The notes beneath the pieces were generated by a model that saw only the letters and a list, made by a program, of their open reading frames with translations, had not been told where the DNA came from and ran no database searches. Shown in pieces: positions 4,861 to 53,613 of a DNA stretch of 64,000 nt. The stretch is from NCBI GenBank assembly GCA_011176615.1, contig DUEG01000001.1, positions 209-64,208 of the forward strand, in the 5' to 3' direction. Numbering within the stretch: the first letter of the stretch is position 1; each line of letters starts with the position of its first letter. Origin of the DNA: Anaerolineae bacterium. GTDB taxonomy: Bacteria; Chloroflexota; Anaerolineae; Anaerolineales; UBA11858. The translations under genes and the position numbers were made by a program.

Positions 4861-4869
4861 ATTGGCTTA

Positions 4870-5199
4870 TTAACGTAGTTTGAAGAAGTTTGTTAACTTC
4901 ATCGCCAGATTTAGATCCCCAGCCAATTTAAGTTTTCCTTGCATAAATGCCTTCATCCCATCTATTTTCCCTAAGATGACATTTTTGTAATCCTCGGAAT
5001 CAGCCGTTAAAGTCATTTTAGGATTTTCTGCAACACCGGACTCCACCTCACATTGCCCGTCCTTAATCTTGATAATCCAATCACCAGCCTCTTCCCCCGT
5101 CAGATGATATTGGATCACTGCATCTACGCCTATCGCTTTTTCAGGGATAAATGCTTTTGGCATTCTATTCATTAAAGTTTCAATTGTTATCTCCGACAT
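4870..5199 (-). CDS. SCP2 (sterol carrier protein 2-like) lipid-binding domain protein
   Basis: 109 aa. The C-terminal GKIDGMKAFMQGKLKLAGDLNLAMKL is the SCP2 hallmark. AGGAG SD present. Starts 15 nt downstream of the thiolase stop. Confidence 0.75.
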   Translation of the reverse strand: MSEITIETLMNRMPKAFIPEKAIGVDAVIQYHLTGEEAGDWIIKIKDGQCEVESGVAENPKMTLTADSEDYKNVILGKIDGMKAFMQGKLKLAGDLNLAMKLTNFFKLR

Positions 5200-5214
5200 T
5201 TTCTTCTCCTTGAA

Positions 5215-6414
5215 TTAGTTCATATTTTGGAACACGCCAGCCGCGCCCATACCACCGCCAATGCACATGGTTACCAAACCGAATTCTACGTCACGTCGCT
5301 TCATTTCATAGAGAATTTGGGTGGTAAGCTTCGCTCCCGTGCACCCCAAAGGATGCCCAAGTGCAATTGCCCCGCCGTTAACATTGGTAATTTCTTCATT
5401 TAAACCGAGCGTACGAACAACTGCTACCGATTGCGCTGCAAACGCTTCATTTAATTCAATCAAGCCAAAATCATCTAATGACATACCCGTGATTTTCAAA
5501 ACCTTTGGAACCGCAGAAATTGGGCCAACACCCATAATCTCCGGGGGAACCCCTGCTGCCGCGAAGGCAATAAAACGCGCCATCGGCTTTAGTCCAAGAG
5601 ATTCCGCCTTTGCCCTGGACATTATTAGTACTGCAGCAGCACCATCACTCATTTGCGATGAGTTTCCAGCAGTGACTGTACCGCCCTCTTTGAAAACTGC
5701 CCTTAATTTAGCAAGCGCCTCCATGCTTGTATCCTTACGCGGTCCTTCATCCCGGCTGAAAACAAATTTCTTGGTTCTCGTTTTTCCATTGTGCCCCTCC
5801 ACAATTTCTACTTCCAAAGGAACAATTTCGGGATCAAATCGACCAGATTCGACCGCAGCGACTGCTCTCTGGTTACTCCGTAATGCAAAAGCATCCTGAT
5901 CTTCGCGGGTCACGCCATATTGCTCGGCAACATTTTCTGCAGTTAAGCCCATACTTGTAAACGCTTCAGGATAATCAACTGCCAAAGAAGGAGTAGGTGC
6001 GAACTTAATACCAGTCATTGGAACCATGCTCATTGACTCAACACCACCCGCAATCGCCACTTCTGTTTGACCAGCCATAATGGAAAAAGCCGCATGGGCA
6101 ATGCTCTGCATTCCAGATGAACAAAATCGATTTATCGTTTCTGCTGGCACAGACACTGGTAAACCAGCTCTAAAGCCAATTAAACGAGCAATGTTCATTC
6201 CTTGAGGTCCTTCTGGGAAGGCACACCCGAGAATCAAATCATCAATTTCCTTGGAATCAAGGACATCAACACGCTTCAGCAATTCCAGAATCACAGCCGT
6301 ACCCATTTCCTCCGATCTACATGTTGCCAAACTGCCTCTCTTTGCCTTACCAATCGCAGTTCGTACTGCTGCTACTATGACAGGATCGCGTGAGGGATCA
6401 TTTTTTGTAATCAT
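5215..6414 (-). CDS. acetyl-CoA acetyltransferase / 3-ketoacyl-CoA thiolase
   Basis: 399 aa. Active-site contexts are present: NRFCSSGMQ (Cys), NEAFAAQ, GGAIALGHPLGCTGA (His and Cys). AGGAG SD present. Confidence 0.9.
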   Translation of the reverse strand: MITKNDPSRDPVIVAAVRTAIGKAKRGSLATCRSEEMGTAVILELLKRVDVLDSKEIDDLILGCAFPEGPQGMNIARLIGFRAGLPVSVPAETINRFCSSGMQSIAHAAFSIMAGQTEVAIAGGVESMSMVPMTGIKFAPTPSLAVDYPEAFTSMGLTAENVAEQYGVTREDQDAFALRSNQRAVAAVESGRFDPEIVPLEVEIVEGHNGKTRTKKFVFSRDEGPRKDTSMEALAKLRAVFKEGGTVTAGNSSQMSDGAAAVLIMSRAKAESLGLKPMARFIAFAAAGVPPEIMGVGPISAVPKVLKITGMSLDDFGLIELNEAFAAQSVAVVRTLGLNEEITNVNGGAIALGHPLGCTGAKLTTQILYEMKRRDVEFGLVTMCIGGGMGAAGVFQNMN

Positions 6415-6450
6415 TTGTTACTCTCCTAATCATGTAATTTCTGTCTTAAG

Positions 6451-8874: not shown

Positions 8875-8933
8875 AGTAGCCTCCAATCTTTGAATAACTT
8901 ACTCTTTTTTTGCTTCCATGTTAATGAGAACCA

Positions 8934-9827
8934 TTACGGACCCCAAATTACCAAATTATCGAAGTATACGGTAAGATTTTCTTTCGAATCCAAAGTCCCT
9001 GCCATCATCCCAACATACCCTGGACCAAGTCCTGCGACTTGCTTACGAATTAATGCCTTGTCATTAACAAATAATGTGAGCGCATTTCCACGGCAGTCTC
9101 CACGGATATGATTTGTCGCCCCTTTGTTTGTTTTAATAATATCCGATTTTTGATATACGATGAAATCCACAAACCCATTACGGGTCTGCCCCAACCCATA
9201 ATATCCATCGGATGTGATGAAAAGCGTGTAATAACTACTCGTGGACTCACGACAGGAAAAGCCATAATATCCACCCCCACTTTTCAGGGTCACATCCGCC
9301 TCAACGCGTACTTCTGCCAGTTTCAACCAACTTCTGCTACTTGTTATCTCGACATTATTATCTTCAATTGTCATGAAATATTTCCCCCCTGCAATGCCCA
9401 TCTTATAATTTTTTCCGCTTGTCTTCAACCAAGGCGTTGAAGGATCAGAGAAATCTTCCTTTAAAATAGGAATTACTTCCGGAGTGGCTGTGGGAGAAAG
9501 TGTCGGTGAAGCAGTCCAAGTTGGTCTCAATGTTTTGGATGGAAATGGTGTCCATGTCGGGCGCAGCGTTGGCTTTTCCATTCTGGTTGGTGTTGTTCTT
9601 TCAGTTGGAACCGGGGTTTTCGTAGGAACAGGAGTAATACTCGGCTCTACTATATCAGTTGGTTTTTCCGTGGCTTGTATTGACTGATCGTTCTCAGTTT
9701 CCGTTTGAAGCCTTTGCCCAAGGCTACACGCAGTACCGGCAATCCCAAGCAGTAAAACCAATAATATTAGATTGATTCTCATTGGTGATATATTTATCTT
9801 GCTCATAAGCGTTCCAATCTCTATCAA
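8934..9827 (-). CDS. secreted lipoprotein with a Pro/Thr-rich linker and a C-terminal LamG/ConA-like beta-sandwich domain (paralog A)
   Basis: Signal peptide with a lipobox-like GTAC. PT-rich linker (TPVPTKTPVPTERTTPT..). The C-terminal pattern FSD..W..YYGFSCR..YYTLFITSDGYYGLG..LTLFVND..VGMMAG..VYFDNLVIW is shared with the adjacent gene. The exact start is uncertain. Confidence 0.7.
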   Translation of the reverse strand: MIEIGTLMSKINISPMRINLILLVLLLGIAGTACSLGQRLQTETENDQSIQATEKPTDIVEPSITPVPTKTPVPTERTTPTRMEKPTLRPTWTPFPSKTLRPTWTASPTLSPTATPEVIPILKEDFSDPSTPWLKTSGKNYKMGIAGGKYFMTIEDNNVEITSSRSWLKLAEVRVEADVTLKSGGGYYGFSCRESTSSYYTLFITSDGYYGLGQTRNGFVDFIVYQKSDIIKTNKGATNHIRGDCRGNALTLFVNDKALIRKQVAGLGPGYVGMMAGTLDSKENLTVYFDNLVIWGP

Positions 9828-9852
9828 ACATCCAGATAAAATTCATAAGGAA

Positions 9853-10746
9853 TTATGGATTCAGAATCGCAAAATTATCGAATTCCACTTCCATTCCTAC
9901 ACCACTTAGTTTATTACCTACAACCATTCCAACATTCCCTGAATTAAAAGTATCATCAATTACTTGTAATAATTCTTCACCATTTGCAAATAGCGTTAGT
10001 CGTTTCTCATTACAAACACCGCATACCCGGTTCATATGGTTCTTCCCCTGGTTGATAATTCCTTTTTCATCTATCCCATCTTCCAAAAACTCGAATTCAC
10101 CGTCTTTCATCCTTCCAATCCCATAAAAACCATCATCTCCAATTACAAGAGCGTAATAATTGTCTCCTTCATCCTTGAGTCGACATACAACACCATAATA
10201 ACCATCATCAGGACCATCAACGCGCTTACCATCAACTTCAATTTTTATATTATGGTAGTTAACATCCCGAATACTCCAAATCGCTGCATTCAAGATTTTG
10301 TTATAAATATGATATGTTTCCTTTACATATTTAAAGCCATATTCATCCCCTGTATATTTGTACCAACCATTGCTATTGGAAAAATTATCTTCGAAGATCG
10401 CACCGGGTATTTCTGTCGGCGTAGGACTAAGCGTTGGCGTTTCAGAATTCGTTGGCTCAGGCGTCGCTGTAGAAGGAGATTGTGTGGGAGGTTCTAAGGT
10501 ATTTGTTTGTAATGGAGGTAAAGGTACAGGCTGAGTCATTGTCGCTTTTACTTGCTCTTCCTGTGCAGATTTTGTGTAATCAGCAACAATTGTTAAAGCA
10601 ACTGAAGTGAAAATCTCGTCCTTAGAAATAGTTTCAACAGGTTGTTGCTGCTGCAAAACGGGTAAATTACAAGAAACTAAGAATATGCTTCCAAAGAGCA
10701 AGAAAATTAAACTAAGACCCAGTATTTGTTGATGGACTTTCTTCAC
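9853..10746 (-). CDS. secreted lipoprotein with a Pro/Thr-rich linker and a C-terminal LamG/ConA-like beta-sandwich domain (paralog B)
   Basis: Signal peptide with LVSC. PT-rich linker. The C-terminal pattern FSN..W..YYGVVCR..YYALVIGDDGFYGIG..LTLFANG..VGMVVG..VEFDNFAILNP is collinear with paralog A. Confidence 0.7.
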   Translation of the reverse strand: MKKVHQQILGLSLIFLLFGSIFLVSCNLPVLQQQQPVETISKDEIFTSVALTIVADYTKSAQEEQVKATMTQPVPLPPLQTNTLEPPTQSPSTATPEPTNSETPTLSPTPTEIPGAIFEDNFSNSNGWYKYTGDEYGFKYVKETYHIYNKILNAAIWSIRDVNYHNIKIEVDGKRVDGPDDGYYGVVCRLKDEGDNYYALVIGDDGFYGIGRMKDGEFEFLEDGIDEKGIINQGKNHMNRVCGVCNEKRLTLFANGEELLQVIDDTFNSGNVGMVVGNKLSGVGMEVEFDNFAILNP

Positions 10747-10881
10747 TCGCTTATACCTCCGTTTTCTTCACTCAGAGCGACTCAAACTTACTTCATATTC
10801 AACAATTATTATCAACTAATCATTACATATTCAATCATCCACAAATAATCTCCTTGTAGGAAATCCTTAAACACTCTTTTT

Positions 10882-10923
10882 GAAAAAAAGATGACCTTGC
10901 AAAACAAAACATTGCAAGGTCAT
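10882..10923 (-). terminator. intrinsic terminator of the phosphofructokinase gene
   Basis: A perfect 12-bp stem, ATGACCTTGCAA (10891-10902) with TTGCAAGGTCAT (10912-10923), around a 9-nt loop. On the minus strand it is followed by CTTTTTTT. Confidence 0.8.
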
Positions 10924-10930
10924 TTAGTTT

Positions 10931-12100
10931 TTAGTACAAGAACATCGGCTTTCCCAGCATATCATGCACCTTCGGACGGTAATTCTCAACGTCATAAAGG
11001 GCGGTAACATCAACAATCTTCTTTCCTGATGTAACCATGGTCAGAGGAACGGTTGTATAATTTCCTTGTTGTAGGGCAACCATCCTGCCGGTATGCCCTA
11101 TGGCTATTTGATCTAATGCCAAATTTCCAAACGAGACTGCGACCATTCGGTCCAAAGAATCCGGAGAACCTGAGCGCATTAAATAAGCCAATTGTTGATG
11201 CATCACGTTAATCCCAGAACGTTTTTTTATTTCCTGTGCAACCAGGTATCCAATACCACCGAGTTTCTTATGCCCATAAGCATCTTCTTCACCCGTTTGG
11301 ATAATCTCACCTCCGAGAACTTGTGCTCCTTCAGAGATTGTCATAATCGCATAATTAGAGGGGTTATTCTTTCTATCCTTGATTAAGAAATTTACAAGCC
11401 TGTCAAGATCAATTGGCACCTCAGAAATTACTGCCCGGTTCACATCCGCCAAGTATGCAGCAAATAGAGAGGTTTCCCCAGAATTTCGTCCAAATAATTC
11501 CATCACACCTATTCTTTCATGTGAACCGACAGGGGTCCTCATATTAATAATGGCATCAACCGAGCGGGTAACTGCTGTAGAGAAGCCAATACAATAATCT
11601 GTTCCAAATACATCATTATCCATTGTCTTGGGTATAGCCACAACTTGAAAACCCTCTTGATGTAATCTTGCAGCATAACTCAGTGTATCATCACCACCAA
11701 TTGGTATTAAAGCCTCAACTTCCAACGCATCTAATACTTTAAGAACATGCGACGTACAATCTACCCGCCCGTTATCTTTCTGGAGAATGTCTTCCGCTGC
11801 TATATGATTTGGCACATCTTCGGGTTTCCAATTGGATGGATTGGTGCGCGAAGTATGTAAAACCGTCCCGCCTGTCCGATCGATCTTCCGAACACACTCT
11901 TTTGTCAAAGGAATCGTTAATTCCCGAATGGTTTCTGGGTTACTTGGATCAATTCCCAGAACACTCCACCATCCTCTGCGTAAACCAATGACCTCAATGC
12001 TGTGATCTCTAGCCCGGTTAACTACTGCTTTAATCGCAACATTCAACCCAGGAACATCACCTCCACCTGTCAAGATGCCGATTTTTCGTTTTACGACCAT
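10931..12100 (-). CDS. pfp: 6-phosphofructokinase, with PPi-dependent-type signature residues
   Basis: PfkA family: [27 protein letters not shown]. Asp in GGDD and Lys in PKTMDND are the residues associated with PPi rather than ATP use. ATG 12100 has GGAGG 7 nt upstream. Confidence 0.8.
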
Positions 12101-12319
12101 GTTGTTACCTCCGTAGTGTATTTGCAACCAGACAAAGAATCTTCCTCCTTCAAAGGTCCCGTCTGTTCCATGTTGGTCTTTTACAATCTATTTGATTTTA
12201 CCTCAAATCAACACCTTGACAGTTTGCTTCAGCGTGTCTTCTGTGGATATTTCATGGACTCTATTTTTATCGATCAAAATGAATCCTTTTGTCCAACCAT
12301 AATCTCACCGATCATCTAA

Positions 12320-13570
12320 TCATCTCAATTGACTACCCCGATAACCTAGAACATTTCTAGCAACAACAAGACGATTTATCTGACCTGTTCCTTCATATAA
12401 ATCTGTTATCTTCGAATCACGGAACCATTTCTCCAGCAACAATTCCCTGCTATACCCTAATGGACCAAGAATCTCAATCGCTTTTTGGGTTATCTTAACA
12501 ACAACATCGCCAGCACGTAATTTGGACATTGAGGCTTCTCGTGGATTATGGATATGATTGTCCGCCATCCATACAGCTTTTAGTACAAGTAACCACGCTG
12601 AATGGAGCATCATTTCCATATCAATGAATTCGCGTTCAATATTTGTTAATTTCTGCCTTGGTAACCCATATCGAATGACAACTCCATTCTTCTCAAGTTC
12701 TTCTTTGAGTAATTCCAGGGTTGCCCTAGCAATGCCAATCGCCTGTGCTGCAACGATTGGGCGAGTCGCATCAAAGGTAGCCATTGCACCTTTAAAACCC
12801 TTCGTTGTTCTCTTCTCCACTTCAGGACTACCGAGAATATTTTCGAAAGGCACTCGACAATCTTGAAGGAGGATGGAGGCAGTATCACTCACGCGTATTC
12901 CGAGTTTATACTCCAGTTTTGTGACAGTACAACCAGGCGTACCCGCTTCGACAACAAAGGACCTCATACCTGCTCTCCCTGCTGAAGGATCAATCGTCGC
13001 CCAAACAATTATGAAGCCATCAGAATCGATCAATGCTTTATGTCCTGCGGTTACGAATATCTTCTCACCATTTAATATCCATTCATTTGTTTCTTTGTCC
13101 AATACTGCGGTTGCACGAATCGCAGAAGTATCTGAACCGGCTTGTGGTTCTGTCATTGCCATCGCATCGAAAACAGGTTTATCCCCTCTGAATTTTGAAA
13201 GAAATTTCTTTTTCTGCTCAGGAGTTCCTGCAGCCGATACCGCAGCAGAACCAAGCATGCCTCCAGGTGTGCACAAATACATACCTGCATCACCCCAAGC
13301 AAGCATCTCAACCATATGCACCAAGCGCTGGTATCCGATAGGTGGTCGCTTGTCTTTCTTCTCATCTTTTGACTTCTTATCTGTTGGAGCCATTGATGCT
13401 GCGCCTCCCATGGCTTTTGTTGCCTGGTGCATAAAATTAATATAATCCCATGGAATTTCATGCTCATGGTCATCAAAGTAACGAGACACTGGGCGCATCA
13501 TATTTACTGCTACAGTCTCTACCAAATTTTGTACTTGTTGAATAGCCTCGGGTTTATCAAAATCAATCAT
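12320..13570 (-). CDS. acyl-CoA dehydrogenase (canonical FAD-binding/catalytic type)
   Basis: 416 aa. MTEPQAGSD motif and a C-terminal DLYEGTGQINRLVVAR carrying the catalytic Glu. Unusual Lys-rich insertion near residue 60 (PTDKKSKDEKKDKRPP). Confidence 0.85.
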   Translation of the reverse strand: MIDFDKPEAIQQVQNLVETVAVNMMRPVSRYFDDHEHEIPWDYINFMHQATKAMGGAASMAPTDKKSKDEKKDKRPPIGYQRLVHMVEMLAWGDAGMYLCTPGGMLGSAAVSAAGTPEQKKKFLSKFRGDKPVFDAMAMTEPQAGSDTSAIRATAVLDKETNEWILNGEKIFVTAGHKALIDSDGFIIVWATIDPSAGRAGMRSFVVEAGTPGCTVTKLEYKLGIRVSDTASILLQDCRVPFENILGSPEVEKRTTKGFKGAMATFDATRPIVAAQAIGIARATLELLKEELEKNGVVIRYGLPRQKLTNIEREFIDMEMMLHSAWLLVLKAVWMADNHIHNPREASMSKLRAGDVVVKITQKAIEILGPLGYSRELLLEKWFRDSKITDLYEGTGQINRLVVARNVLGYRGSQLR

Positions 13571-37666: not shown

Positions 37667-37773
37667 TTTATCCTTCCTCGGAACGCCTCTCACTTATATT
37701 ATATAAGTTACCCTCGCTCCTGTAAATTTGGCAAAGGCTTCCTTTACCTTAACGAAATATTCGAGTTGCTGAC

Positions 37774-37803
37774 AAAAAAAACCGCCACCTTGTTCAAGGC
37801 GAC
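37774..37803 (-). terminator. minus-strand-specific intrinsic terminator about 110 nt upstream of the rplY start
   Basis: The minus-strand RNA GUCGCCUUG-AA-CAAGGUGGC (the stem needs two G-U pairs, so it forms only on the minus-strand transcript) is followed by GG and U8 (A8 at 37774-37781 on the plus strand). Confidence 0.55.
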
Positions 37804-37821
37804 GACGCCATTAACATAAAT

Positions 37822-37850
37822 ATTTTAACTGGCTTGGTTATATTCGTCAA
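37822..37850 (-). promoter_or_regulatory. candidate minus-strand promoter immediately upstream of that terminator
   Basis: On the minus strand: TTGACG (37845-37850), a 17-nt spacer, then TAAAAT (37822-37827). Confidence 0.4.
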
Positions 37851-38035
37851 TAGCGCACATTTCTATTTAGGTATTTTTTTAGGACATTTCTATTTTGCCT
37901 TGCCATTAGCCCACCCTCCATGCTCTACCAACCAATTTAATATCCGGACGCCAATCCCAATTACAGCCCAACATCTCATCCATAATGCGGCATATTTCTT
38001 GCATCAATTAAAACGAGACAATCTCGGAGGTAATT

Positions 38036-38365
38036 ATGAACATTATATCCCAACAAGAAATGATTTTTATTATGACCGCAAGTCTTTTTATCCTCGGGCT
38101 GATTACATTTGTTACAGGCATGATAATCCTCATCACGCGTTCATTTGGTAAGGATATCCGAATATTAACCCAACAAACCGCAAAATTAACTCAAAAGGGT
38201 TTTACAGAAAACATTGCAGGTCTGGTAGGCAATGCTTCTGCGTTACTAAGCGCCACAAGTGAGTTGGTGAAAACCGCTGCAGGAGTAGGTGTTTTTCTCA
38301 CTGTCATCGGTTTAATACTTATGTCAACCTCAGTTGGAATAGTTATGTATGTATATATAGGATAA
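38036..38365 (+). CDS. small membrane protein (2 TM helices flanking an amphipathic segment), first gene of the TPR/peptidase operon
   Basis: GGAGG lies 6 nt upstream of the ATG. TM1 is FIMTASLFILGLITFVTGMIILI and TM2 is GVGVFLTVIGLILMSTSVGIVMYV. The stop lies 4 nt before the next ATG. Confidence 0.7.
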   Translation: MNIISQQEMIFIMTASLFILGLITFVTGMIILITRSFGKDIRILTQQTAKLTQKGFTENIAGLVGNASALLSATSELVKTAAGVGVFLTVIGLILMSTSVGIVMYVYIG

Positions 38366-38369
38366 TTCA

Positions 38370-41300
38370 ATGGAAAAACAAAATCTCATTGCTGATTTAA
38401 AAAATATTTTCCCTGAAAAGAATTGGTCTTGGATAATTCCAACCCTTCAAAACGATCCTTTAGTTTGGGAACAGATCCGCGATACAAAGTTCCGCAGGTT
38501 GGTGGTCGAGAAACTCCATAGAAAACCATTGTTATGGACACCTGCTAATCTAGCCTTGATAGCAATAGATCCTAATATACCCAAAGAGAATCTCACCACC
38601 AATCAATCACCTCTGTCCATTCCATATATTCTCGAAAAGGCTAAAGTTCTATTGCGTGAATATTCTATTAAACCTAATCCGCCCAAATCACTAGCAGAGG
38701 CAGGATATTACGCAATAGCATTGTTAGATGATTTCAACAAAAAGAAAGATTGGAATCAAACCTTTAAACATGTTCTCTCTACAAACGAGCCAAGTATATT
38801 CGAAACCAGTTTAAGGACGGCGCTTGCATGTATTTATAGTTGGTTTCTTCCCCCACAAGATTTCTTGAATGCTCTCTACCGGATTTCAAAGAAAGAATCG
38901 TTAATTATTCATATTATCTTGTCTAATCCTGCACAACCGGAAGAACGTGCCGAATTGTTCACTCACTTGGTCAAACCTTATGATTTAAATTCTAAATTTC
39001 ACTTCGTCGACACATTAAATCAATATGACCCTAAAATTGCTCAAGAAGTCGCAAAACAAATAGTAAGAAGGTTGCCAAGGGATGTGTTTCCTAATCACAG
39101 CAAGAGCATACCGTCCCTCTCTGAAGAGATACAAACATTGCTCGCTAAAGATGGACTTTATACCATTGCCTCTGAAATTTCAAACGCAAAACAAATTCTA
39201 CAAAAAGCATGGGAATCTACAAAGAATCTGAATAATGAGATTGCATTAACATTTGCTAAGCGTGAAGTTAAAGCCGGTCATATTGAGAATGCGCTAGAAA
39301 CGTGGAAGAAGATGGAAGCATCTTCTGACCTCGAACTAACCACGGATTTCATTATCGAACTTATCCAACAACAATATACCAAAGAAGCGAAAAATATATT
39401 CAACAAGATAAATGGTACGCGAGGGAAAATTTCAAGTAGTAACGGTAAATCTCATCCATCACTGACTTTTGTAAAAGCGTTAATGAACTTTAAGGAAGGG
39501 AACCTCCAAGATGCTTATAAATACGCAAAAATCATCCGTGAAGAAATTCAAAATGTCAACAGTAAAACCATTTATCATAAATATTCAAAGAAAAACTTAT
39601 TATCATTGGCGAACTTATTCTTAGATTTGGGTTATCCATTTGATGCTTACCAAGTTACATCGATTGCTCAAAAATATTATGCTAATGACCTGGATATTGT
39701 AAAAGCCCATTATCAATCTCTGAATTTAATGGTTCCTCACACAGAAGACACACTCTTTCATGAGGAAGCGATTAATACTGCCCACCTCGCGACGACCTTA
39801 TCGCCTGACCGAATCGATTTTCGTCGAAATCTCGCAAAAGCATATGAATCCGCTAGGATGTGGGATGATGCTAATAATCAGTGGGTCGAAATTCTCGACA
39901 AACAAGCCACTCCGAGGATTGAAGACCTACGATCATACGCAAAATGCGCTTTTCAGGCTGGATTTAAGGAACAGGCAGTCAAAGCATGTAATTATGGTTT
40001 AAGTATAGATTCAGAAGATGGTCTTACTTATCTTATCTTAGCAAAAATCCATGAGGCGGACGAAAAAGTCAAAAAAGCCTATGATTATTACTCAAAAGCA
40101 CTTCAATATTCTCCGGATGAACCTGATGTCTGGTTAGGATATGCAGATTCTTTGATAAAGCAAGGAAAAAGAGGCGAGGCTATCGCCATCATCAATCGTG
40201 GATTGAATGCTATTCCAAATGCACCATTACTCCACGAGAAAATTGGTGAAATCCATTTATTAAATAAAGATTTCGAGAATGCCGTAGAACAACTGAAAAT
40301 AGTAAATAAATATCTCAATGAGATCCCCTCATCAAAAAATAATGAATTGAGATTGAAAAACGCTTCATCATTAGGGGATGCTTACTATCAGACGGGGAAA
40401 TATAAACAAGCCATCGAAATACTAAAGCCCGTTCATATTGCCCATCCTACTGACCCACATATTGCATATCAATATGCAAAATCATTATTAGAAGCGAATC
40501 AACCAAATAAGGCTATTCAACCTATGGTGCGAGTTCTGCAGACAAACCCCAAAGAAATAGCCCCATACATTGATTATGCAAAAGCCCAAATTGCTGCAGA
40601 AAACGATCCAAAAGAGGCTATACGTTCTCTAGAACATGTGATGAAAATTAAACCAGATCACCAAGAAGCGCTTGCGCTTTTAGGAGATGCATATGCTCAA
40701 GATGATCAACTAGAAAAAGCAATCAAGACATATCAAAAAGTTCTAGAAACCCCTCTAAAAGAGAACCCATTGTGGTTTGTTCGCCTTTCCCATGGTATTG
40801 GGAAAGCCCATCTTCGTATGGGAAAAACAGAGGCAGCAATTACTATGCTCAAACAAGCACAAGCAGAAGATCCCAATAACATCAAGGTACTAAAGACATT
40901 GGCAGACGCCTATATCCAGGCTAAATTACCTGAAAATGCTTTAGAAATAAGTAAAAATGTACTTCACAAGAAACCTGAGGATATTGATGTCCATTTGTGG
41001 TATGCCAAAATTGCAAAATCATTAGACAATTCTTCTGACGCTATCAGGGTTCTAAAACGAGCCAACGAAATCAATCCCGATCGACAAGATGTACTCATAT
41101 CTCTTGGTCAAACTCATTATGACGCAGGGAATATTGATCTTGCCCGACAAACTTTTACAAGCATTGTCAACCACCCAAAAACAAATCTACATGATTTAAA
41201 GAAGGTCGCTTCATATTTATTGACACTTGATGATTTACCTAATGCTACAAAGGCATTGACCAAAGCCCTCGAATTAGCAAAGAAATCATTTGATAACACC

Positions 41301-43937
41301 CAAGAAATAGTCAACACCACAATTGATCTGGCTAAAGTTTATCAATTACAAGACAAGCAAGAAAAAGCGATCCAATTACTCGATGAAATCAGTCAAGACT
41401 CAAATGACCTAACCATCAAACTTTTAAAAGTTCGCATTTTCCATTCATTAGGCAAAACCCAAGCAGCAATCGCGGCATTAGAAGATGCATTCAACCTATA
41501 TCCTGAACACCCCGAATGTCATTTCATTGCGGCTCAAATTTATCGCTCAAAAGGAGATTTGGTTCCTGCCCTTTACCACGCTAGCGAAGTCTTAGCCAAA
41601 CTTCCTCAAAATCAGAAAGCAAGGGTTCTAGCGGCAGAGATCAGCACTTCTGTTTTGGACAAAAAAGAATCCTTAAAATTCTTACAATCAGCATCAATTA
41701 ATGCACAAGATAACAAGCACGGGTGGATTAATAATAACCAAAATGCTGGAGTGCAATACCCCTGCCTCCGAGCAGAGGCTGCTTTGGTTGACAATAATGA
41801 GGTTGAGGCAGCAGATGCGTTAACCCAAGCCATGAAAATCAACTCATCCCACCCAAGGGTTCTCGCTATTCAGGCTCGTCTTACTGCTCGACGGGGTGAT
41901 AATGAGGCTGCCAACGAGATCCTCAATTCGGCTGTCGAAACGCTAAGAAATTCCAAGGCGATCTCAAGGGATCGTTTCCCAATCACCAGTCTCGAAGAAA
42001 ATTCTGATAACGCACAAAATCCATCTGAATTTCCATTTGCTGCCGAAGATTACTTTGGAGTAACCGAAGCATCTATTGAGTTAAATCGTTGGGAATCTGC
42101 TATCTCCTTATCGAAAAAGGGAGCCCATCTAGCACCGTTTGAACCAAAATCACATTTAACTATTGCCCGGACACTTGTGCTACGAGCCGAGATGCAAAGA
42201 ATCTGCAATGACCTACTCATCATCGAACATGCACCAGGTGATATAGCCCTTAATAAACTAGCATGGGATCAATTCGAAGAAGCCATAAAAAAAGTTGAAT
42301 TATTAATCCCTGATCATACTTTATCGCCTAATGAGGATTTAGACACCCTTATTTCCCAATGGCAATTACGTGGCGAGGCAGTCTTCAGTCCCAACGATGG
42401 GTTGATCAAAAATCTTGAAAAATACGATAGCGATGATGTACTTAGCATTTCTCTGATTGAAACTCTTAGACTCTTGAATAAAAATCATCGTGCTGCAGAT
42501 ATAGCCAATAATCTAATAATCCAGCAAGATGACCGGAGTCTTACCAACCCCAAACAATTAATCGTGATCGCATTGGGCTTAGCCGAAACTGACCCTCATA
42601 AAGCTATGATAACAATCCAAGAAGCCATTGAGTCTTATCCAATACACGACTTGCAGAAGACACCACTCCTCTATGCTTTGCTAAGTAAAACAGCATTTCT
42701 CGACTCGGATTATAAGGTGGCGATTGAAGCAATCGATAAAGCATTGGAAATATGGGATAACGAAGCAAACTGGCACGCACTAGCCGCTGACATTATCCTT
42801 GCTCAAGAAAAATCAAATAACGCTAAAATGGGCACAATCTCCCTTTCTCATCAAGCAATTACGGGGATCATCGATCATAGGGAACGTTGCCACCAACTTC
42901 TTCCAAATGACATCAATCATCAAATCTCGCTCGCCAAAACATATCAAATCACTGGGCGTTTATTTGATGCAATAAAGCAATTGGAAGATGCTGTCCACGA
43001 GCACCCCAACCATCCCGAAGCCTGGATAGCATTAGCCGAAATTTACCAAGACAAAGGGGAACTCGACAAAGCTGTCGAAATGAGCAAAAAGGCAATCAAA
43101 CTTGACGAATCGAATAGCAAAAACTTACTATTCTTTGCTCGCTTACTTGTGAACACCAAGAAATTTAAAGAGGCAGCAGAAATAACGAAAGCCATAATCC
43201 ATAATAATCCCAAAAATCCTGATGGCTATTATTTATTATCCAAATCTCTCCTTGGTACTGACAAAAAAGTCGATGCAATCAAAGCCCTTGAAAGAGCCCT
43301 TTCACTCGCTCCTGACGACATCAAATTAGAACTCGAAAAAATTCATTTGCTTGAATTAACGCAAGGGAAAGAAAGCGCATTCAAATCTCTCCAAATGCTC
43401 TCGGAGAAATATCCCAATGAATCTGTTATCCAAATAACATACGCAAAGGAACTTTTACAGAGGAATCAATATGAAGATGCAATCGCCATCACCAAAAACG
43501 CGCTAAATCTTATCAACAATCAAGACGTAGCGGATATTAAGGCATCAGAATTGCATTTCCTTCTTGGACATCTTTATAAAAAAACTGGACAATTGGATCA
43601 TGCAATTCATCATCTATCACAATCCATAAGCCTTAATCCCAACAACGCAAAAGCATATATCGAAGCAGGGAGTACTTACCAAAAACAACATCAGTATCGA
43701 AAAGCAATTGAATCTTTCAAATCCGCAATTGAGATTGCTCCCAATTCTTCAGATGCATACTATCACGCTGGGTTAAATTACAAAAGTATGAAAGATTATC
43801 AAAACGCTGAGAGTATGTTCCGAAAAGCAGCAGAGTATGCACCCAATGATTTATCTATCCATCGACAATTAGGCGCCATGGTTGCAATCAATCTGGTACA
43901 TAATCGTCAGAATTTAGCCGCTGTAGGTGCTGATTAA
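38370..43937 (+). CDS. giant (1855 aa) tetratricopeptide-repeat protein, no signal peptide
   Basis: Uninterrupted 5.6-kb ORF with dozens of 34-aa TPR units, for example AEAWIALAEIYQDKGELDKAVEMSKKAIKLDESN and SDAYYHAGLNYKSMKDYQNAESMFRKAAEYAPND. The first ~450 aa show no obvious TPR periodicity. Confidence 0.9.
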   Translation: MEKQNLIADLKNIFPEKNWSWIIPTLQNDPLVWEQIRDTKFRRLVVEKLHRKPLLWTPANLALIAIDPNIPKENLTTNQSPLSIPYILEKAKVLLREYSIKPNPPKSLAEAGYYAIALLDDFNKKKDWNQTFKHVLSTNEPSIFETSLRTALACIYSWFLPPQDFLNALYRISKKESLIIHIILSNPAQPEERAELFTHLVKPYDLNSKFHFVDTLNQYDPKIAQEVAKQIVRRLPRDVFPNHSKSIPSLSEEIQTLLAKDGLYTIASEISNAKQILQKAWESTKNLNNEIALTFAKREVKAGHIENALETWKKMEASSDLELTTDFIIELIQQQYTKEAKNIFNKINGTRGKISSSNGKSHPSLTFVKALMNFKEGNLQDAYKYAKIIREEIQNVNSKTIYHKYSKKNLLSLANLFLDLGYPFDAYQVTSIAQKYYANDLDIVKAHYQSLNLMVPHTEDTLFHEEAINTAHLATTLSPDRIDFRRNLAKAYESARMWDDANNQWVEILDKQATPRIEDLRSYAKCAFQAGFKEQAVKACNYGLSIDSEDGLTYLILAKIHEADEKVKKAYDYYSKALQYSPDEPDVWLGYADSLIKQGKRGEAIAIINRGLNAIPNAPLLHEKIGEIHLLNKDFENAVEQLKIVNKYLNEIPSSKNNELRLKNASSLGDAYYQTGKYKQAIEILKPVHIAHPTDPHIAYQYAKSLLEANQPNKAIQPMVRVLQTNPKEIAPYIDYAKAQIAAENDPKEAIRSLEHVMKIKPDHQEALALLGDAYAQDDQLEKAIKTYQKVLETPLKENPLWFVRLSHGIGKAHLRMGKTEAAITMLKQAQAEDPNNIKVLKTLADAYIQAKLPENALEISKNVLHKKPEDIDVHLWYAKIAKSLDNSSDAIRVLKRANEINPDRQDVLISLGQTHYDAGNIDLARQTFTSIVNHPKTNLHDLKKVASYLLTLDDLPNATKALTKALELAKKSFDNTQEIVNTTIDLAKVYQLQDKQEKAIQLLDEISQDSNDLTIKLLKVRIFHSLGKTQAAIAALEDAFNLYPEHPECHFIAAQIYRSKGDLVPALYHASEVLAKLPQNQKARVLAAEISTSVLDKKESLKFLQSASINAQDNKHGWINNNQNAGVQYPCLRAEAALVDNNEVEAADALTQAMKINSSHPRVLAIQARLTARRGDNEAANEILNSAVETLRNSKAISRDRFPITSLEENSDNAQNPSEFPFAAEDYFGVTEASIELNRWESAISLSKKGAHLAPFEPKSHLTIARTLVLRAEMQRICNDLLIIEHAPGDIALNKLAWDQFEEAIKKVELLIPDHTLSPNEDLDTLISQWQLRGEAVFSPNDGLIKNLEKYDSDDVLSISLIETLRLLNKNHRAADIANNLIIQQDDRSLTNPKQLIVIALGLAETDPHKAMITIQEAIESYPIHDLQKTPLLYALLSKTAFLDSDYKVAIEAIDKALEIWDNEANWHALAADIILAQEKSNNAKMGTISLSHQAITGIIDHRERCHQLLPNDINHQISLAKTYQITGRLFDAIKQLEDAVHEHPNHPEAWIALAEIYQDKGELDKAVEMSKKAIKLDESNSKNLLFFARLLVNTKKFKEAAEITKAIIHNNPKNPDGYYLLSKSLLGTDKKVDAIKALERALSLAPDDIKLELEKIHLLELTQGKESAFKSLQMLSEKYPNESVIQITYAKELLQRNQYEDAIAITKNALNLINNQDVADIKASELHFLLGHLYKKTGQLDHAIHHLSQSISLNPNNAKAYIEAGSTYQKQHQYRKAIESFKSAIEIAPNSSDAYYHAGLNYKSMKDYQNAESMFRKAAEYAPNDLSIHRQLGAMVAINLVHNRQNLAAVGAD

Positions 43938-43983: not shown

Positions 43984-46641
43984 ATGATTAAATCAACGCT
44001 CTCCCCCATCCCGACAAATGAGCCTTGGCCAAGACAATACGTGCAAAAATTAGTCGAAACTGCATTGAGTGCAAATTCAATTAGGTTTGCAAGAGCTTTA
44101 TCGGAAGCCTGGCTAGATAACTTTCCTGGTGATTTAACCTTTCACTTTCTCCTGGCAAAATCCTGGTTTGCACTAAAAAGACTTAACAAGGCAACTGGAA
44201 TCATCAAGAAAGTAATAGATACGGATCCGGAATATCTTGCAGCACAAAGACTATACCAAAAGTTGCTCCTGTCTCTAAAGCATCCATCCCTTCCTATCGT
44301 GAATGGTGATGTCTATGTTCTCAGCGGTAAGTATGAAGGTAAGATCAAATTGCCAAAGTGGAGCGAGACCTTGATTTATGCAAGACGAGCAATCAATCAA
44401 GAGAATTTTCAACTTGCCGAAAAATTAACTCACGAAATTCTTGGACAAGACCCTCCCACCCCATTAGGAGCAATTACTCACATACGCGCAATGATCGGTT
44501 CACCGATAAATCTTTCGCGACCACCTATTTCCTCATTACAGAAAATCACCGAATTCTATCATAAAAAGTGGCCATCATGCCTTCTTTTCGACCTGGTTTT
44601 AGCGGATACTCTCCTGGATACTGGTCAGGAAGATCAAGCCGTTTCAATGATCCATCATGCAGCCTCGCGAGACTCTTCTGGACAAGTTGCGAAGAGATTA
44701 TGGGGACCTAAGCATCCTTACTTAAACATGTGGCTTAAAAATATGGAAGCCCGCTTTGATATACCAATTCCTGCGGATGTCTCTACGGTTTTAGGATGGA
44801 ACCAGCTTCCTATCGGGTCATCAGGGTCAGACGAACCTCTCGTTCAGGAGGAAGAAAATAACAAACTAAAAACACCTTTCGAATTTGATATTAATCTCAT
44901 TGAAACCAAAAATAAACATGGGGAAAAACAAAAAGAATCTGAGTCACTAGAATCCGTAAAAGAACAATTAGAACGAGTCGCTAAAAGAATAAAGAGACCT
45001 GACCTAATTCAAGCAGACGGTCGATATCCTGTCTATGTTGTTTTTACAACAAAACAAGGTTTGATCTCAAAATATGGCGTGGATACAGCAGAAATGATTG
45101 ACAAAGAACTCCAGCAAATCGTTTCGGCGGTTCGAGATAAAGAAAACTGGGGTGCAGTTCTTGTGTACGCAGATGATCCGATTTGTATGGCAGCATTCGA
45201 TCTCAAACCAGCAAAGGCAAATGACCCTTGGAGTTTGAAATTATTAATATCTGAATTAGATAAAAAACTCGGCGAAAAAGGATCAATGATTGGTTCTTTA
45301 CTTATCATTGGAGGACCCGATGTTGTTCCCTATCATATGTTACCCAATCCAACCGATGATATAGATGCAGAAGTGCCATCCGACAATCCTTATGCAACAC
45401 GGGACGAAAACTATTTCATTCCAGAGTGGCCGACCGGTCGTTTGCCTGATGGATTTGGAAATGATCCGGGGCTATTGATCAGTGTTCTCAGAAAAATTTC
45501 TGAGTATCACTGGAACCAGAATCATAAAAATACCAATCCATTCAAGATATGGATAGAGCAGATTATTGCTTTCTTTAAAGGTAAGCACAATTCCAAGCGC
45601 AAACCTTTTGGATTCAGTGCTGAGGCATGGTTAAGAGCATCTGTTTCCGTATATAAGACAATTGGAAAACCGGAAGAAATTGTCACTTCACCACCGAATG
45701 GATTGTCAAATGGGTTCTCTTTATCTCCCTACCACTTAGGATATTTCAACTTGCACGGTTTACCCGATGCGCCCGAATGGTACGGACAAAGTGACCCACA
45801 AACGAATCAAGGAGAGATTTATTATCCAATCGCTATTCACCCAAACGATTTAAACAATGGTAAGGAAACCGGCTCTCACCAAACACGTGTTCCTAAAATT
45901 GTTTTTACAGAGGCTTGCTTTGGCGCAAACATTATTGACAAAATAATTGATGAATCTCTAGCGTTAAAATTTATCGTCTCAGGAACAAAAGTATTCATCG
46001 GGTCAACAGCGATTGCTTATGGCTCAATCGACATGAATCTCACTTCCGCAGATTTGCTTGGTAAAACATTTTGGCGTTTTGTCAAAGACGGCTACACTAC
46101 AGGGGAAGCGCTATATCGTGCAAAGATTTTTTACGCGAAAGAGATGCACGAGCGTAATGATTACCTCGACGGTGAAGATCAAAAGACATTGATTTCCTTC
46201 ATTCACTTCGGTGATCCTCTCTATCATTCGCCAATATTCCAGAAGAGTTACGCCAAACTCAAAGATCAACAAGCGGACATGGGAATCCTAAGAGTTAAAG
46301 CACCCATCGAAGAAATTAATACTGTTTGTGATAACTGTGAAACCTGGAACGATGGCGATTCCATTCCCCCGCAAGTCATGGCACATGTCAAAGCAGTTGT
46401 AGAACAATATCTGCCAACAATGTCTGGCGCTCATGTTACTGTCCACCAAGATGAAATCTCCTGCTTAAATTCAGAATCAGTTTGCTTAAATGGTTCAACA
46501 AGCAAAAAAGTAACCCTGAAGAATCATAGAGTTGTTGTTCTAAACAAGCAAATAAAACAGGCTAAACATCTCCATAATCGTTATGCACGCTTAACCTTAG
46601 ATAATAGCGACAAAATTGTCAAGATATCAGTATCAAGATAA
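43984..46641 (+). CDS. 885-aa protein with a TPR-like N-terminus and a C-terminal gingipain/C25-like (clan CD) cysteine peptidase domain; no signal peptide
   Basis: C25-like motif order: YVVFTT.., LLIIGGPDVVPYHML, SDNPYA, TGRLP, YFNLHG (His591, nt 45754-45756), IVFTEACFGAN (Cys645, nt 45916-45918), VFIGSTAIAYG, TTGEALYRAK, FIHFGDPLY. The fold call is by motif resemblance and was not searched. Confidence 0.6.
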   Translation: MIKSTLSPIPTNEPWPRQYVQKLVETALSANSIRFARALSEAWLDNFPGDLTFHFLLAKSWFALKRLNKATGIIKKVIDTDPEYLAAQRLYQKLLLSLKHPSLPIVNGDVYVLSGKYEGKIKLPKWSETLIYARRAINQENFQLAEKLTHEILGQDPPTPLGAITHIRAMIGSPINLSRPPISSLQKITEFYHKKWPSCLLFDLVLADTLLDTGQEDQAVSMIHHAASRDSSGQVAKRLWGPKHPYLNMWLKNMEARFDIPIPADVSTVLGWNQLPIGSSGSDEPLVQEEENNKLKTPFEFDINLIETKNKHGEKQKESESLESVKEQLERVAKRIKRPDLIQADGRYPVYVVFTTKQGLISKYGVDTAEMIDKELQQIVSAVRDKENWGAVLVYADDPICMAAFDLKPAKANDPWSLKLLISELDKKLGEKGSMIGSLLIIGGPDVVPYHMLPNPTDDIDAEVPSDNPYATRDENYFIPEWPTGRLPDGFGNDPGLLISVLRKISEYHWNQNHKNTNPFKIWIEQIIAFFKGKHNSKRKPFGFSAEAWLRASVSVYKTIGKPEEIVTSPPNGLSNGFSLSPYHLGYFNLHGLPDAPEWYGQSDPQTNQGEIYYPIAIHPNDLNNGKETGSHQTRVPKIVFTEACFGANIIDKIIDESLALKFIVSGTKVFIGSTAIAYGSIDMNLTSADLLGKTFWRFVKDGYTTGEALYRAKIFYAKEMHERNDYLDGEDQKTLISFIHFGDPLYHSPIFQKSYAKLKDQQADMGILRVKAPIEEINTVCDNCETWNDGDSIPPQVMAHVKAVVEQYLPTMSGAHVTVHQDEISCLNSESVCLNGSTSKKVTLKNHRVVVLNKQIKQAKHLHNRYARLTLDNSDKIVKISVSR

Positions 46642-47930: not shown

Positions 47931-48719
47931 ATGATAACCCCATCCTCCATTGGAAGTATCAATAAACTTCCAAAAAGTGAAAAGCGACAAATCTATACAC
48001 GATTAATACCTAAAGAATTGCTGGATACTTACCAAATCTCAGATACATTATATGACAAACAAGGTAATGATCTTATATCAATGAAATGCGATCCAGGCAC
48101 CAGCACCTTAGAATTATCCCTTTATCATCAATATGGTTTTATAGATCCGATCTTATATGGTCACATTACTGACACCTTAACAGGATATATTCACATCTTG
48201 CTTTATATATTAAATGATCCGTTTTCACCGCGCTTTGATGTTGATGTAATGAAAGATGGCACTCCTACTAAATTTGGTATTCTCCAACGTAACGTAGAGG
48301 CAGAAATTTCCGCAATGAAATCAGGGCTTGCCCCAGGTCAGATACGTAAAGGGCCTCATCTCCTCCCTGCTGCAATAAAAGCCTTCGAAGCGTTCGTCGA
48401 ATCACTTGGACATGACCGTTACTTTGCTGAACCGCTCTATTATCATAACGCAATCAACTTTGAACGATATGGTTTTGCGTACCAAATAGGTCGGCACTTA
48501 ATGGAGAGGATCCAAGAAGGCTTCTCAAACCCTGGAGATCTCCTTCCGCTACTTAATGGATCATCACCTTTCCGAATGCCAGAAGCAGCCAATAGTATAA
48601 GGCTCAGATCATGGGCAATTCATGATGGCATTTTAGGAAAACCTTTTACAAACGTCACAATGTATAAGCAGATTGGAAAACATGCAGGTTTCTCAACATG
48701 CCAAAACTGTACCTGGTGA
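47931..48719 (+). CDS. hypothetical protein (262 aa), function unknown
   Basis: Clean ORF starting 11 nt after smpB. No motif I can assign. The C-terminus contains CQNC. Confidence 0.6.
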   Translation: MITPSSIGSINKLPKSEKRQIYTRLIPKELLDTYQISDTLYDKQGNDLISMKCDPGTSTLELSLYHQYGFIDPILYGHITDTLTGYIHILLYILNDPFSPRFDVDVMKDGTPTKFGILQRNVEAEISAMKSGLAPGQIRKGPHLLPAAIKAFEAFVESLGHDRYFAEPLYYHNAINFERYGFAYQIGRHLMERIQEGFSNPGDLLPLLNGSSPFRMPEAANSIRLRSWAIHDGILGKPFTNVTMYKQIGKHAGFSTCQNCTW

Positions 48720-52548: not shown

Positions 52549-52601
52549 TTAACATTCTTTGGAAATTATGTTATAATATTTATGACGCAATGCGTCATAA
52601 A
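52549..52601 (+). promoter_or_regulatory. promoter plus palindromic operator candidate of the phasin-like/PhaR-like genes
   Basis: TTAACA at 52549-52554, a 17-nt spacer, then TGtTATAAT (hexamer at 52572-52577). A perfect inverted repeat follows at 52579-52601, ATTATGACGCA-a-TGCGTCATAAT, covering the predicted TSS. Confidence 0.55.
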
Positions 52602-52629
52602 CCTAGATTTTCATATATTGGAGGTAACA

Positions 52630-52995
52630 ATGACTAAAAAAGATTCAAGTGAAACTGAAAAGGAAAGTACGAAACCAATTTTCGAATCACTGCGAAAGAT
52701 CATGCTTGCAAGTATAGGGGTTGTTGCGCTCGCTCAGGATGAAATCGAAGATTTTATTAATAGACTTATTGACCGAGGAGAAATTGCTGAAAAAGATGGG
52801 CGAAATTTGATTGCTGATCTTCGAAAAAAACGAGCGCAGAAATTTGAAGAAAGAGGAAGCGAATTCGAAAAGCATATGAGAAAAATTGTCGACCGGATGG
52901 GTGTACCTACGAGGTCAGAAATTCAGGACCTAAACGACAAAATTTCAATGCTCACTAAACAGATCGAAGAATTAAATAAAAAAGAAGAGAAGTAA
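52630..52995 (+). CDS. phasin-like / PHA-granule-associated regulator-like coiled-coil protein (COG3937-like)
   Basis: ATG 52630 has GGAGG upstream. LRKIMLASIGVVALAQDEIEDFINRLIDRGEI...VPTRSEIQDLNDKISMLTKQIEEL is typical of this family. Confidence 0.65.
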   Translation: MTKKDSSETEKESTKPIFESLRKIMLASIGVVALAQDEIEDFINRLIDRGEIAEKDGRNLIADLRKKRAQKFEERGSEFEKHMRKIVDRMGVPTRSEIQDLNDKISMLTKQIEELNKKEEK

Positions 52996-53029
52996 ACATC
53001 ACACAATCACACATTATAAGAGGTCAAGG

Positions 53030-53052
53030 TGCAGGAATTCCATGAATTCCTG
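53030..53052. promoter_or_regulatory. perfect 10-bp inverted repeat between the phasin-like and PhaR-like genes
   Basis: GCAGGAATTC-cat-GAATTCCTGC. There is no U-tract after it, so it is not a classical terminator. It could be an RNA stem-loop or a protein-binding site. Confidence 0.45.
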
Positions 53053-53073
53053 CTACCTTTCCAAATCTACAGC

Positions 53074-53613
53074 ATGACAACAATCAAGCGTTACTCAAAC
53101 CGAAAACTCTATGATACTGAAACAAAACGCTATATCACCCTATCAGATGTCATCACTATGCTTCGCGAAGGGAAAGATATCACGGTCATTGATAATCAAT
53201 CCGGAAGAGACATCACAAACCTTACGCTAACTCAGACAATTCTTGAACTAGAAAAAAAACATGGGGGACATTTTCCAAGACATATTTTAAAAAATCTGAT
53301 ATCAACTGGAAGTCATGCCCTGGAAAAAACATGGTCAACTATACCATCACCCTCTTCTTTATTTCAGGTTATCGATGTGCTAATTGAAAAACGTATAAAT
53401 GGGTTAATTAGACAGGGCACTATAACAAAATCCGAGGGTCAACGAATTATCGCTGACCTTTCAAAGGCACCTTTGGCAGAAAGTTGGATTTCAGACCAAT
53501 TCTTCGAGAATCTCTTCGAGAGGTTTAATATCCCTACCCGAGACAAACTAAATGCACTAACTTCAAGCATTGATGCCTTGATCCAGCAGATTGACGAAAC
53601 ACTTGAAAAATAG
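53074..53613 (+). CDS. PhaR-like protein (PHA synthesis repressor N-terminal DNA-binding domain)
   Basis: The start is at ATG 53074. IKRYSNRKLYDTETKRYITLSDVITMLREGKDITVIDNQSGRDITNLTLTQTILELE matches the PHB_acc_N/PhaR signature. Confidence 0.75.
   Translation: MTTIKRYSNRKLYDTETKRYITLSDVITMLREGKDITVIDNQSGRDITNLTLTQTILELEKKHGGHFPRHILKNLISTGSHALEKTWSTIPSPSSLFQVIDVLIEKRINGLIRQGTITKSEGQRIIADLSKAPLAESWISDQFFENLFERFNIPTRDKLNALTSSIDALIQQIDETLEK

Follow-up and report, generated by a model that had tools for sequence, protein, structure and literature searches.

A stretch of 64,000 nucleotides from an Anaerolineae bacterium (GenBank assembly GCA_011176615.1, contig DUEG01000001.1, positions 209 to 64,208 of the forward strand), referred to as the window herein, carries on its plus strand an open reading frame (ORF) at 43984-46641 whose product is likely an intracellular, probably active endopeptidase of the gingipain type (MEROPS family C25). 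The enzyme is fused to tetratricopeptide repeats (TPR), and we take it to be co-transcribed with two partner genes and to make limited cuts in cytoplasmic proteins. An earlier note, made from the DNA letters, had described nine ordered motifs and a His591/Cys645 catalytic dyad in a C25-like domain lacking an export signal. All nine motifs are found within this 885-residue ORF in the order and at the coordinates it had claimed, and the codons CAC and TGC are read where it had placed the two dyad residues. The parts of the protein are as follows.

43984 to 46641, plus strand: gene 3, the 885-residue TPR-C25 protein, a single ORF that holds the whole finding.
44032 to 44793, plus strand: residues 17-270, predicted TPR solenoid (AlphaFold2, Pfam TPR_19, Foldseek).
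44806 to 45003, plus strand: residues 275-340, predicted disordered linker (predicted local distance difference test score, pLDDT, <50 at residues 275-318; length and sequence vary among homologs).
45016 to 46233, plus strand: residues 345-750, predicted C25 (gingipain-type, clan CD) catalytic domain (Foldseek, hhalign, Pfam hits on homologs, precomputed PF01364 hit).
45025 to 45051, plus strand: residues 348-356, motif YPVYVVFTT.
Residues 439-453 of the 885-residue protein: motif LLIIGGPDVVPYHML.
Residues 466-471: motif SDNPYA.
Residues 484-488: motif TGRLP.
Residues 586-592: motif GYFNLHG.
45754 to 45756, plus strand: CAC codon of His591, context NLHG, directly after β-strand 585-588.
Residues 638-649: motif KIVFTEACFGAN.
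45916 to 45918, plus strand: TGC codon of Cys645, context EACFG, directly after β-strand 639-642.
Residues 670-680: motif VFIGSTAIAYG.
Residues 707-714: motif GEALYRAK.
46198 to 46224, plus strand: residues 739-747, motif FIHFGDPLY.
46234 to 46638, plus strand: residues 751-885, family-specific C-terminal region (AlphaFold2 models, alignment, residue counts).

A search of 5.8 billion proteins for homologs of this protein yielded 769 relatives, and the best 120 were used for alignment. These 120 are nearly all full-length (850-1,000 residues), share ∼40% identity, and come mostly from Chloroflexota/Anaerolineales genomes. Conservation of the dyad among homologs had been set as a check in the earlier note, and upon alignment we found His591 and Cys645 in 120/120 homologs, as well as Gly592 and Glu643. 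Ala644, which flanks the cysteine, is kept, Y587, N589, L590, W599, and G601 are likewise invariant, and most residues of the other motifs (among them P449, H451, S466, D467, N468, Y470, R486, G743, D744, and P745) are conserved to the same degree as the dyad. Since residues found in 120/120 sequences are shared by homologs with only ∼40% identity, this pattern reflects more than chance. His and Cys are spaced 54 residues apart in the window protein; most homologs have 47, and the range is 44-62. Used by itself in an exhaustive HMMER search, the protease domain retrieved 1,378 clusters (50% identity) with E≤1e-3, of which 390 reached E≤1e-30. A single architecture runs through the top 150, barring a few shorter, apparently truncated sequences. 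Relatives were present in at least 573 species in a scan of one genome per species, and the 80 loci kept from that scan are all from Anaerolineae/Chloroflexota, including the cultured Bellilinea caldifistulae. A contig labeled Nitrosomonadaceae (CAXMRF010000062.1) carries a complete operon of the Anaerolineae type with a C25 protein 41% identical to that of the window, and it is probably a mis-binned Chloroflexota contig rather than a case of transfer.

The assignment to C25 draws on profiles, fold, and alignment. An identical protein is encoded on a metagenome scaffold that matches the window (ENA ERZ23491060, scaffold_194), and it carries a precomputed match to PF01364.25 (Peptidase_C25) at the E≤1e-5 level, as does every listed homolog. 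Using PF01364.23, we found matches in 17/53 homologs with a best E of 3.8e-17, and three homologs score 43-50 bits where the cut-off is 23. One ortholog is labeled "C25 family cysteine peptidase" by NCBI. The earlier note had called for a comparison with C25, C11, C13, C14, and CHAT, and of these the C25 relationship stood. The peptidases C11, C13, and C14 are not among the 25 families listed in our Pfam scan of the homologs, and CHAT (PF12770) was seen only below threshold, over the Cys region, in 21/53 homologs (best E 5e-4). Individually listed homologs score 12-17 bits for CHAT against a cut-off of 24, and the window protein has no Pfam match to CHAT.

AlphaFold2 modeled the full protein with a mean pLDDT of 78.7. 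The four best fold matches of this model in the PDB, obtained with Foldseek, are the Porphyromonas gingivalis gingipains RgpB and Kgp (1CVR, 4IEF, 4RBM, and 6I9A), with E values of 3.2e-7 to 1.4e-6 and a probability of 1.00. RgpB was matched as 4ief_D (E 3.2e-7, template modeling (TM) score 0.58 per target) and as 1cvr (E 9.8e-7), and Kgp as 6i9a_A and 4rbm. Across the RgpB and Kgp matches, the TM score is 0.51-0.58 per target over 434-598 aligned columns, with an identity of only 10-14%. Since the match spans at least ∼434 columns, both the N- and the C-terminal sub-domain of the gingipains are covered. In the model, strand 585-588 leads into His591 and strand 639-642 into Cys645, placing both residues at the ends of adjacent strands. 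Such a placement is what has been described for clan CD, including RgpB and caspases, in which adjacent strands carry the His/Cys dyad at their C-terminal ends (PMC4357240).

The alignment of our family with a 16-member profile of gingipain homologs by hhalign is colinear over 265 columns and equates H591 with RgpB His211 and C645 with RgpB Cys244, the RgpB numbering having been checked on the true 1cvr sequence. Additional pairs (window first, RgpB second) are LLIIGGPDVVP with LLVGDHKDIP, SDNPYA with SDQVYG, GRLP with GRFS, GST with AST, and FGDP with FGDP. The features shared in colinear order with the gingipains can be written as LL(I/V)GG..(V/I)P, SD..Y, GR, a His-Gly pair (NLHG in the window protein, TGHG in RgpB), AC, and FGDP. 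The motifs LLIIGGPDVVP, SDNPYA, and GRLP belong to the N-terminal sub-domain of the C25 domain, and the dyad lies in the C-terminal, caspase-like sub-domain. Glu547 was considered as a third catalytic residue, based on the SAE of FGFSAE and S150-A151-E152 of RgpB, and was rejected: Glu is found at this position in 72/120 homologs and is not paired with E152.

Several observations weigh against the C25 assignment. The PF01364.23 profile does not match the window protein, either at full length or as its C-terminal 552 residues, even at E≤10. A phmmer search of PDB sequences with the window protein returned no gingipain or other protease, and a 57-sequence profile of the family run against the PDB gave weak TPR matches and no gingipain. 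The NCBIfam profiles likewise identified no protease in the window protein. The hhalign statistics are weak (E 0.014, probability 3%), and when the single RgpB sequence was used in place of the 16-member profile, with which the dyad is reached, only the motifs of the N-terminal sub-domain aligned (E 0.064). Parts of the model have low confidence, namely residues 510-580 in the first half of the caspase-like lobe and residues 603-614 in the loop between His and Cys. In RgpB, Asp163 is the acidic S1 residue that sets specificity for Arg/Lys, with Gln282/Trp284 as a lid. No counterpart of Asp163 was found in the hhalign alignment, where a gap or the low-confidence segment 532-550 stands across from RgpB 150-170. 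Lastly, RgpB has a His-Cys distance of 33 residues, shorter than the 54 of the window protein and the 47 of most homologs.

Taken together, we place the window protein in C25 because of the PF01364.25 match, transitivity from its family, the fold, and the alignment, and residues 345-750 are supported as a predicted gingipain-type cysteine protease domain with His591/Cys645 as the predicted active-site dyad. The earlier note had named a non-protease fold or a lack of conservation of the two residues as findings that would count against it; the predicted fold is closest to that of the gingipains, and the dyad is kept throughout the 120 homologs.

The absence of an export signal, which the earlier note had read from the N-terminus, holds for the window protein and for its 120 homologs. 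The first 40 residues contain no hydrophobic h-region (Kyte-Doolittle 12-residue maximum 0.56), and no membrane segment was detected in the 885-residue protein, in which no 19-residue Kyte-Doolittle window exceeds 1.43. In the same hydropathy scan, none of the 120 homologs showed a signal peptide, a Tat motif, or a membrane segment. Their mildly hydrophobic N-terminal stretches coincide in the alignment with the first amphipathic TPR helix, whose start is the conserved Arg17. The suspected TPR-like character of the N-terminus was borne out by the model, which has 13 helices plus a short helix at 264-270 (14 helices within residues 17-270), mostly with pLDDT >90, by a Pfam TPR_19 match at residues 36-94 (26.5 bits with a cut-off of 25, E 8.3e-6), and by Foldseek matches of the solenoid to the TPR domains of OGT, SPY, PEX5, and APC subunits. 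This solenoid stands in place of the N-terminal organization of the gingipains. The AlphaFold2 model contains no gingipain-like prodomain, and the disordered linker joins the TPR and protease domains instead. The gingipain features absent here are the signal peptide, the N-terminal prodomain, a recognizable immunoglobulin-like (Ig-like) domain, and a T9SS (type IX secretion system) C-terminal domain (CTD). A secretory organization with signal peptide, prodomain, and Ig-like domain characterizes the known members but does not define the catalytic family. From its sequence features, a cytoplasmic location of the protein is well supported, and its substrate would then be cytoplasmic as well.

The C25 gene is the last of three genes on the same strand. 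The features upstream of it are as follows.

38026 to 38030, plus strand: Shine-Dalgarno sequence GGAGG, 5 nt before the ATG of gene 1, read from the sequence.
38036 to 38365, plus strand: gene 1, 109-residue membrane protein (translation, hydropathy, 64-ortholog alignment).
38370 to 43937, plus strand: gene 2, 1,855-residue all-TPR protein (Pfam TPR models, hydropathy, ortholog alignment).

Only 4 nt separate the gene 1 stop from the gene 2 start, and 46 nt the gene 2 stop from the gene 3 start. We found the same three genes in the same order at five annotated loci from different genomes, and all three were present at 42/42 loci of at least 18 kb. Every other neighbor occurs at no more than 12/42 loci, the most frequent being the gene for ribosomal protein L25 (12/42). 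The genes for the small membrane protein, the giant TPR protein, and the TPR-C25 protein therefore form an operon conserved throughout the Anaerolineae, with the C25 gene last; the partner genes for a small membrane protein and a TPR giant set it apart from the gingipains. The operon is surrounded by housekeeping genes such as L25, smpB, and ftsZ and not by variable islands. Rfam and tRNA scans found nothing within the operon, and a scan for promoters and terminators gave counts no higher than in shuffled sequence. In one complete Chloroflexota genome (CP070764.1, locus positions 2125-12757), the operon lies directly downstream of ftsZ with a 76-residue ORF in between, unlike most other loci, where it is divergent from the L25 gene; as a single case, the adjacency to ftsZ may be a coincidence.

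The gene 1 protein has two hydrophobic helices at approximately residues 15-35 and 83-107 (Kyte-Doolittle 19-residue maximum 2.54). Between these two transmembrane (TM) segments, TM1 and TM2, lies a K/R-rich loop of ∼45 residues with the motif QT..LAQKG(I/L)AE..GLVGNAS.LL, which would face the cytoplasm according to the positive-inside rule. Its 64 aligned orthologs are well conserved and have a median length of 109 residues, and neither Pfam, NCBIfam, nor PADLOC gave a match to the protein. A 105-residue ORF (37834-38151, plus strand) overlaps the start of gene 1 in another frame, and it is probably spurious since it has no Pfam hit and is not called in the public record. In the gene 2 protein, Pfam TPR_19 scores 274 bits over 14 stretches, along with many other TPR models. 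No signal peptide, membrane segment (Kyte-Doolittle maximum 1.03), or catalytic motif was found in it. Its orthologs have a median length of 1,803 residues and are ∼25% identical between species. The best-kept part is a C-terminal helix, I(H/Q)RQLGAVVALNLVHN, and this terminal helix was all that we found when looking for a conserved cleavage or docking motif. When the window is compared with the matching ENA scaffold (L001, 4387-9951), the giant TPR protein (38370-43937) is 99.57% identical and the protease 100%, which points to strain-level variation concentrated in the TPR scaffold protein.

Four other explanations of the protein were weighed. The first is that it is a sortase-like transpeptidase or ligase, which would cut a partner and attach the freed end to a second molecule, as PorU does in type IX secretion and as GPI8 and legumain, also of clan CD, can do. 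The chemistry of a His/Cys dyad also permits transpeptidation. PorU (6ZA2), the C25-family sortase of type IX secretion, shares this peptidase family, and its kinship with RgpB can be detected (6za2_A, E 2.5e-8); it illustrates that C25 enzymes can perform dedicated processing of specific partner proteins. The tight, invariant coupling of our protease to two partner proteins fits such a dedicated reaction. However, PorU is a surface-exposed T9SS component of Bacteroidota, and the neighborhoods examined here hold no T9SS genes or secretion context. T9SS components, a CTD signal, and an outer-membrane context are all absent from the operon, and the 885-residue protein has no export signals. Additionally, the neighborhood of the annotated loci suggests no acceptor molecule, and the listed fold matches, headed by RgpB and Kgp, do not include PorU. 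We therefore consider a transpeptidase quite unlikely.

The second is that the protein is a degradative peptidase that leaves the cell by a non-classical route and acts extracellularly. This would agree with the secretion of all characterized C25 enzymes (PMC4357240) and with metagenome surveys in which gingipain C25 is listed among the extracellular peptidases of Chloroflexi (PMC8359207). Yet the lack of a signal peptide, Tat motif, or membrane segment extends to 120/120 family members, a conserved and confidently folded TPR solenoid begins at about residue 17, the partner is itself a signal-less TPR protein of 1,855 residues, and neither a prodomain nor an Ig-like domain of the gingipain type is present. 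An exported enzyme is thus very unlikely.

The third explanation is a conflict or defense (abortive-infection) effector, comparable to TPR-CHAT (Csx29) or to the CHAT/caspase-like proteases of bacterial NLR-like systems. TPR-CHAT, from the type III-E CRISPR "Craspase" (7Y84 chain C), is built on the same logic as the window protein, with an N-terminal TPR domain joined to a His/Cys protease of clan CD, and is cytoplasmic, as the window protein probably is. Its structure is one of the weaker fold matches (7y84_C, E 1.6e-3), and the weak CHAT hits in 21/53 homologs point in the same direction. The catalytic domain is nonetheless nearer to C25 than to CHAT, with 43-50 bits compared to 12-17 bits and Foldseek E values of 1e-7 compared to 1e-3. 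At the five annotated loci, the surroundings are housekeeping genes with no CRISPR, gRAMP, or NTPase neighbor, and in PADLOC neither the protease nor the small protein had a hit, and the giant drew only generic TPR matches. The same three genes recur in at least 573 species with one family-wide architecture, which is class-wide rather than sporadic. Because of this class-wide conservation, the housekeeping neighborhood, and the lack of PADLOC hits, we disfavor a defense role and regard it as highly improbable. An equally poor prospect is a pseudo-protease that has lost catalysis and whose only use is as a scaffold or in binding peptides, which would account for the missing counterpart of the RgpB S1 Asp and for the partly low-confidence surroundings of the active site, but not for the perfect retention of the nucleophile, the general base, Gly592, Glu643, and Ala644 at ∼40% identity. 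Such residues are usually lost in pseudo-enzymes.

We return to the preferred reading, that of an intracellular TPR-fused C25 endopeptidase. Activity is inferred because it is rare for a pseudo-enzyme to retain nucleophile, general base, and flanking Gly/Ala when identity is down to 40%, and going by its sequence, the 885-residue protein is probably an active and cytoplasmic C25-type protease. We propose that gene 3 is co-transcribed with the genes for the two-pass membrane protein and the 1,855-residue TPR scaffold, and that its product runs from the N-terminal TPR solenoid through a flexible linker and a two-lobed C25 domain to an α+β C-terminal domain, with His591 and Cys645 as the putative catalytic dyad. 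The small membrane protein may position the protease at the membrane through the TPR scaffold, and the TPR modules would choose and hold substrates at the inner face of that membrane. The C25 domain could then make limited, site-specific cuts in one or a few cytoplasmic proteins, possibly including the operon partners, rather than carry out bulk extracellular degradation. Such a mode would resemble that of the clan CD proteases fused to helical repeats, separase and TPR-CHAT/Csx29, the nearest functional analogs, both of which choose their substrate through those repeats. Catalysis, the cytoplasmic location, a complex with the neighbors, and a regulatory processing role are all what we infer. 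Two points weigh on the other side: the placement in the cytoplasm comes from a hydropathy heuristic only, and the proposed complex from synteny only.

A bolder form of this proposal, unlikely as we judge it, is a membrane-tethered, separase-like machine that would make one regulated cut in the cell cycle, septation, or the envelope and that would constitute a core, lineage-defining module of the filamentous Anaerolineae. The small protein might anchor or gate a TPR platform of ∼2,700 residues carrying the C25 protease, and the C-terminal VSR tail might serve for auto-inhibition, as a product-like plug, or be bound by the TPR domain as its ligand.

Separase works inside the cell and uses its extensive helical-repeat part to pick substrates for one regulated cut; in function it is the nearest analog of a giant TPR scaffold paired with a protease of clan CD. 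Separase (MEROPS C50) is a member of clan CD (PMC4357240). It is, however, a eukaryotic enzyme, the helical-repeat mass of the window operon is mostly on a separate polypeptide, and no sequence or profile match to C50 was obtained in any search here.

The C-terminal region of gene 3, comprising ∼135 residues after FGDPLY, opens with residues whose prediction is poor; a single helix packed on an antiparallel sheet of four strands comes next. A separate AlphaFold2 model of this domain reached a pLDDT of 74 and had no significant fold match in the PDB, nor any to the Ig-like domains of gingipains, the best being NTF2- or OCP-CTD-like at E 0.15. For this reason, the domain cannot be equated with the Ig-like domain of the gingipains, an identification that was considered and found unsupported. 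Its tail, ...K(L/I)(A/S)VSR (46618-46638), is near-invariant, with S884 in 118/120 homologs and R885 in 115/120, and Lys in 3. The VSR tail could be a product-like plug of the S1 pocket or a ligand of the TPR groove; the model puts it at the end of the last β-strand instead of in either position. Most family members also have a Cys/His cluster, VCDR...EHxxCxCxGHxCPT (46327-46590 in the window, residues 782-869), which is suggestive of a candidate zinc site. The window protein has only a degenerate form of the cluster and the closest homolog (P0002) lacks it, so it is dispensable, and an essential zinc site was rejected.

The bare assignment of a C25 domain is not new, because NCBI names one ortholog accordingly and the current Pfam model marks the family. 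Our literature searches found no paper on the TPR-C25 family. To our knowledge, every characterized C25 peptidase (gingipains, PorU) acts outside the cytoplasm of Bacteroidota. The window protein differs from all of these in its probable location, its TPR fusion, its missing prodomain, Ig-like domain, and T9SS CTD, its longer His-Cys spacer (44-62 residues in the Chloroflexota family compared to 33 in RgpB), its phylum, and its operon partners. Intracellular regulatory proteolysis in clan CD has so far been linked with caspases/metacaspases, separase, and CHAT, and a signal-less, TPR-fused C25 enzyme in Chloroflexota would extend C25 to this kind of proteolysis. The Anaerolineae are abundant, hard-to-culture bacteria that dominate communities in sludge, sediment, and the subsurface, and an operon that is invariant across hundreds of their species points to a core, unstudied function. 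Surveys that count Chloroflexi C25 hits as "extracellular peptidases" (e.g. PMC8359207) would mis-assign any members of this family that they include.

Lastly, we recorded several other features of the window. On the minus strand at 37781-37806, an 11-bp GC-rich hairpin is followed by a run of seven T, and the more than 8 kb upstream of it hold no gene on that strand. A short way downstream (37698-37726, minus strand), an 11/12 match to a sigma-70-like promoter precedes the gene for ribosomal protein L25; Rfam identified no known RNA at this site. Immediately after smpB, a 262-residue ORF (47931-48719, plus strand) without a Pfam hit is present at only 3/82 related loci. At 52582-53613 on the plus strand, a phasin gene adjoins a PHB_acc_N (PhaR-like) gene, and the pair suggests polyhydroxyalkanoate granule proteins in an Anaerolineae genome.

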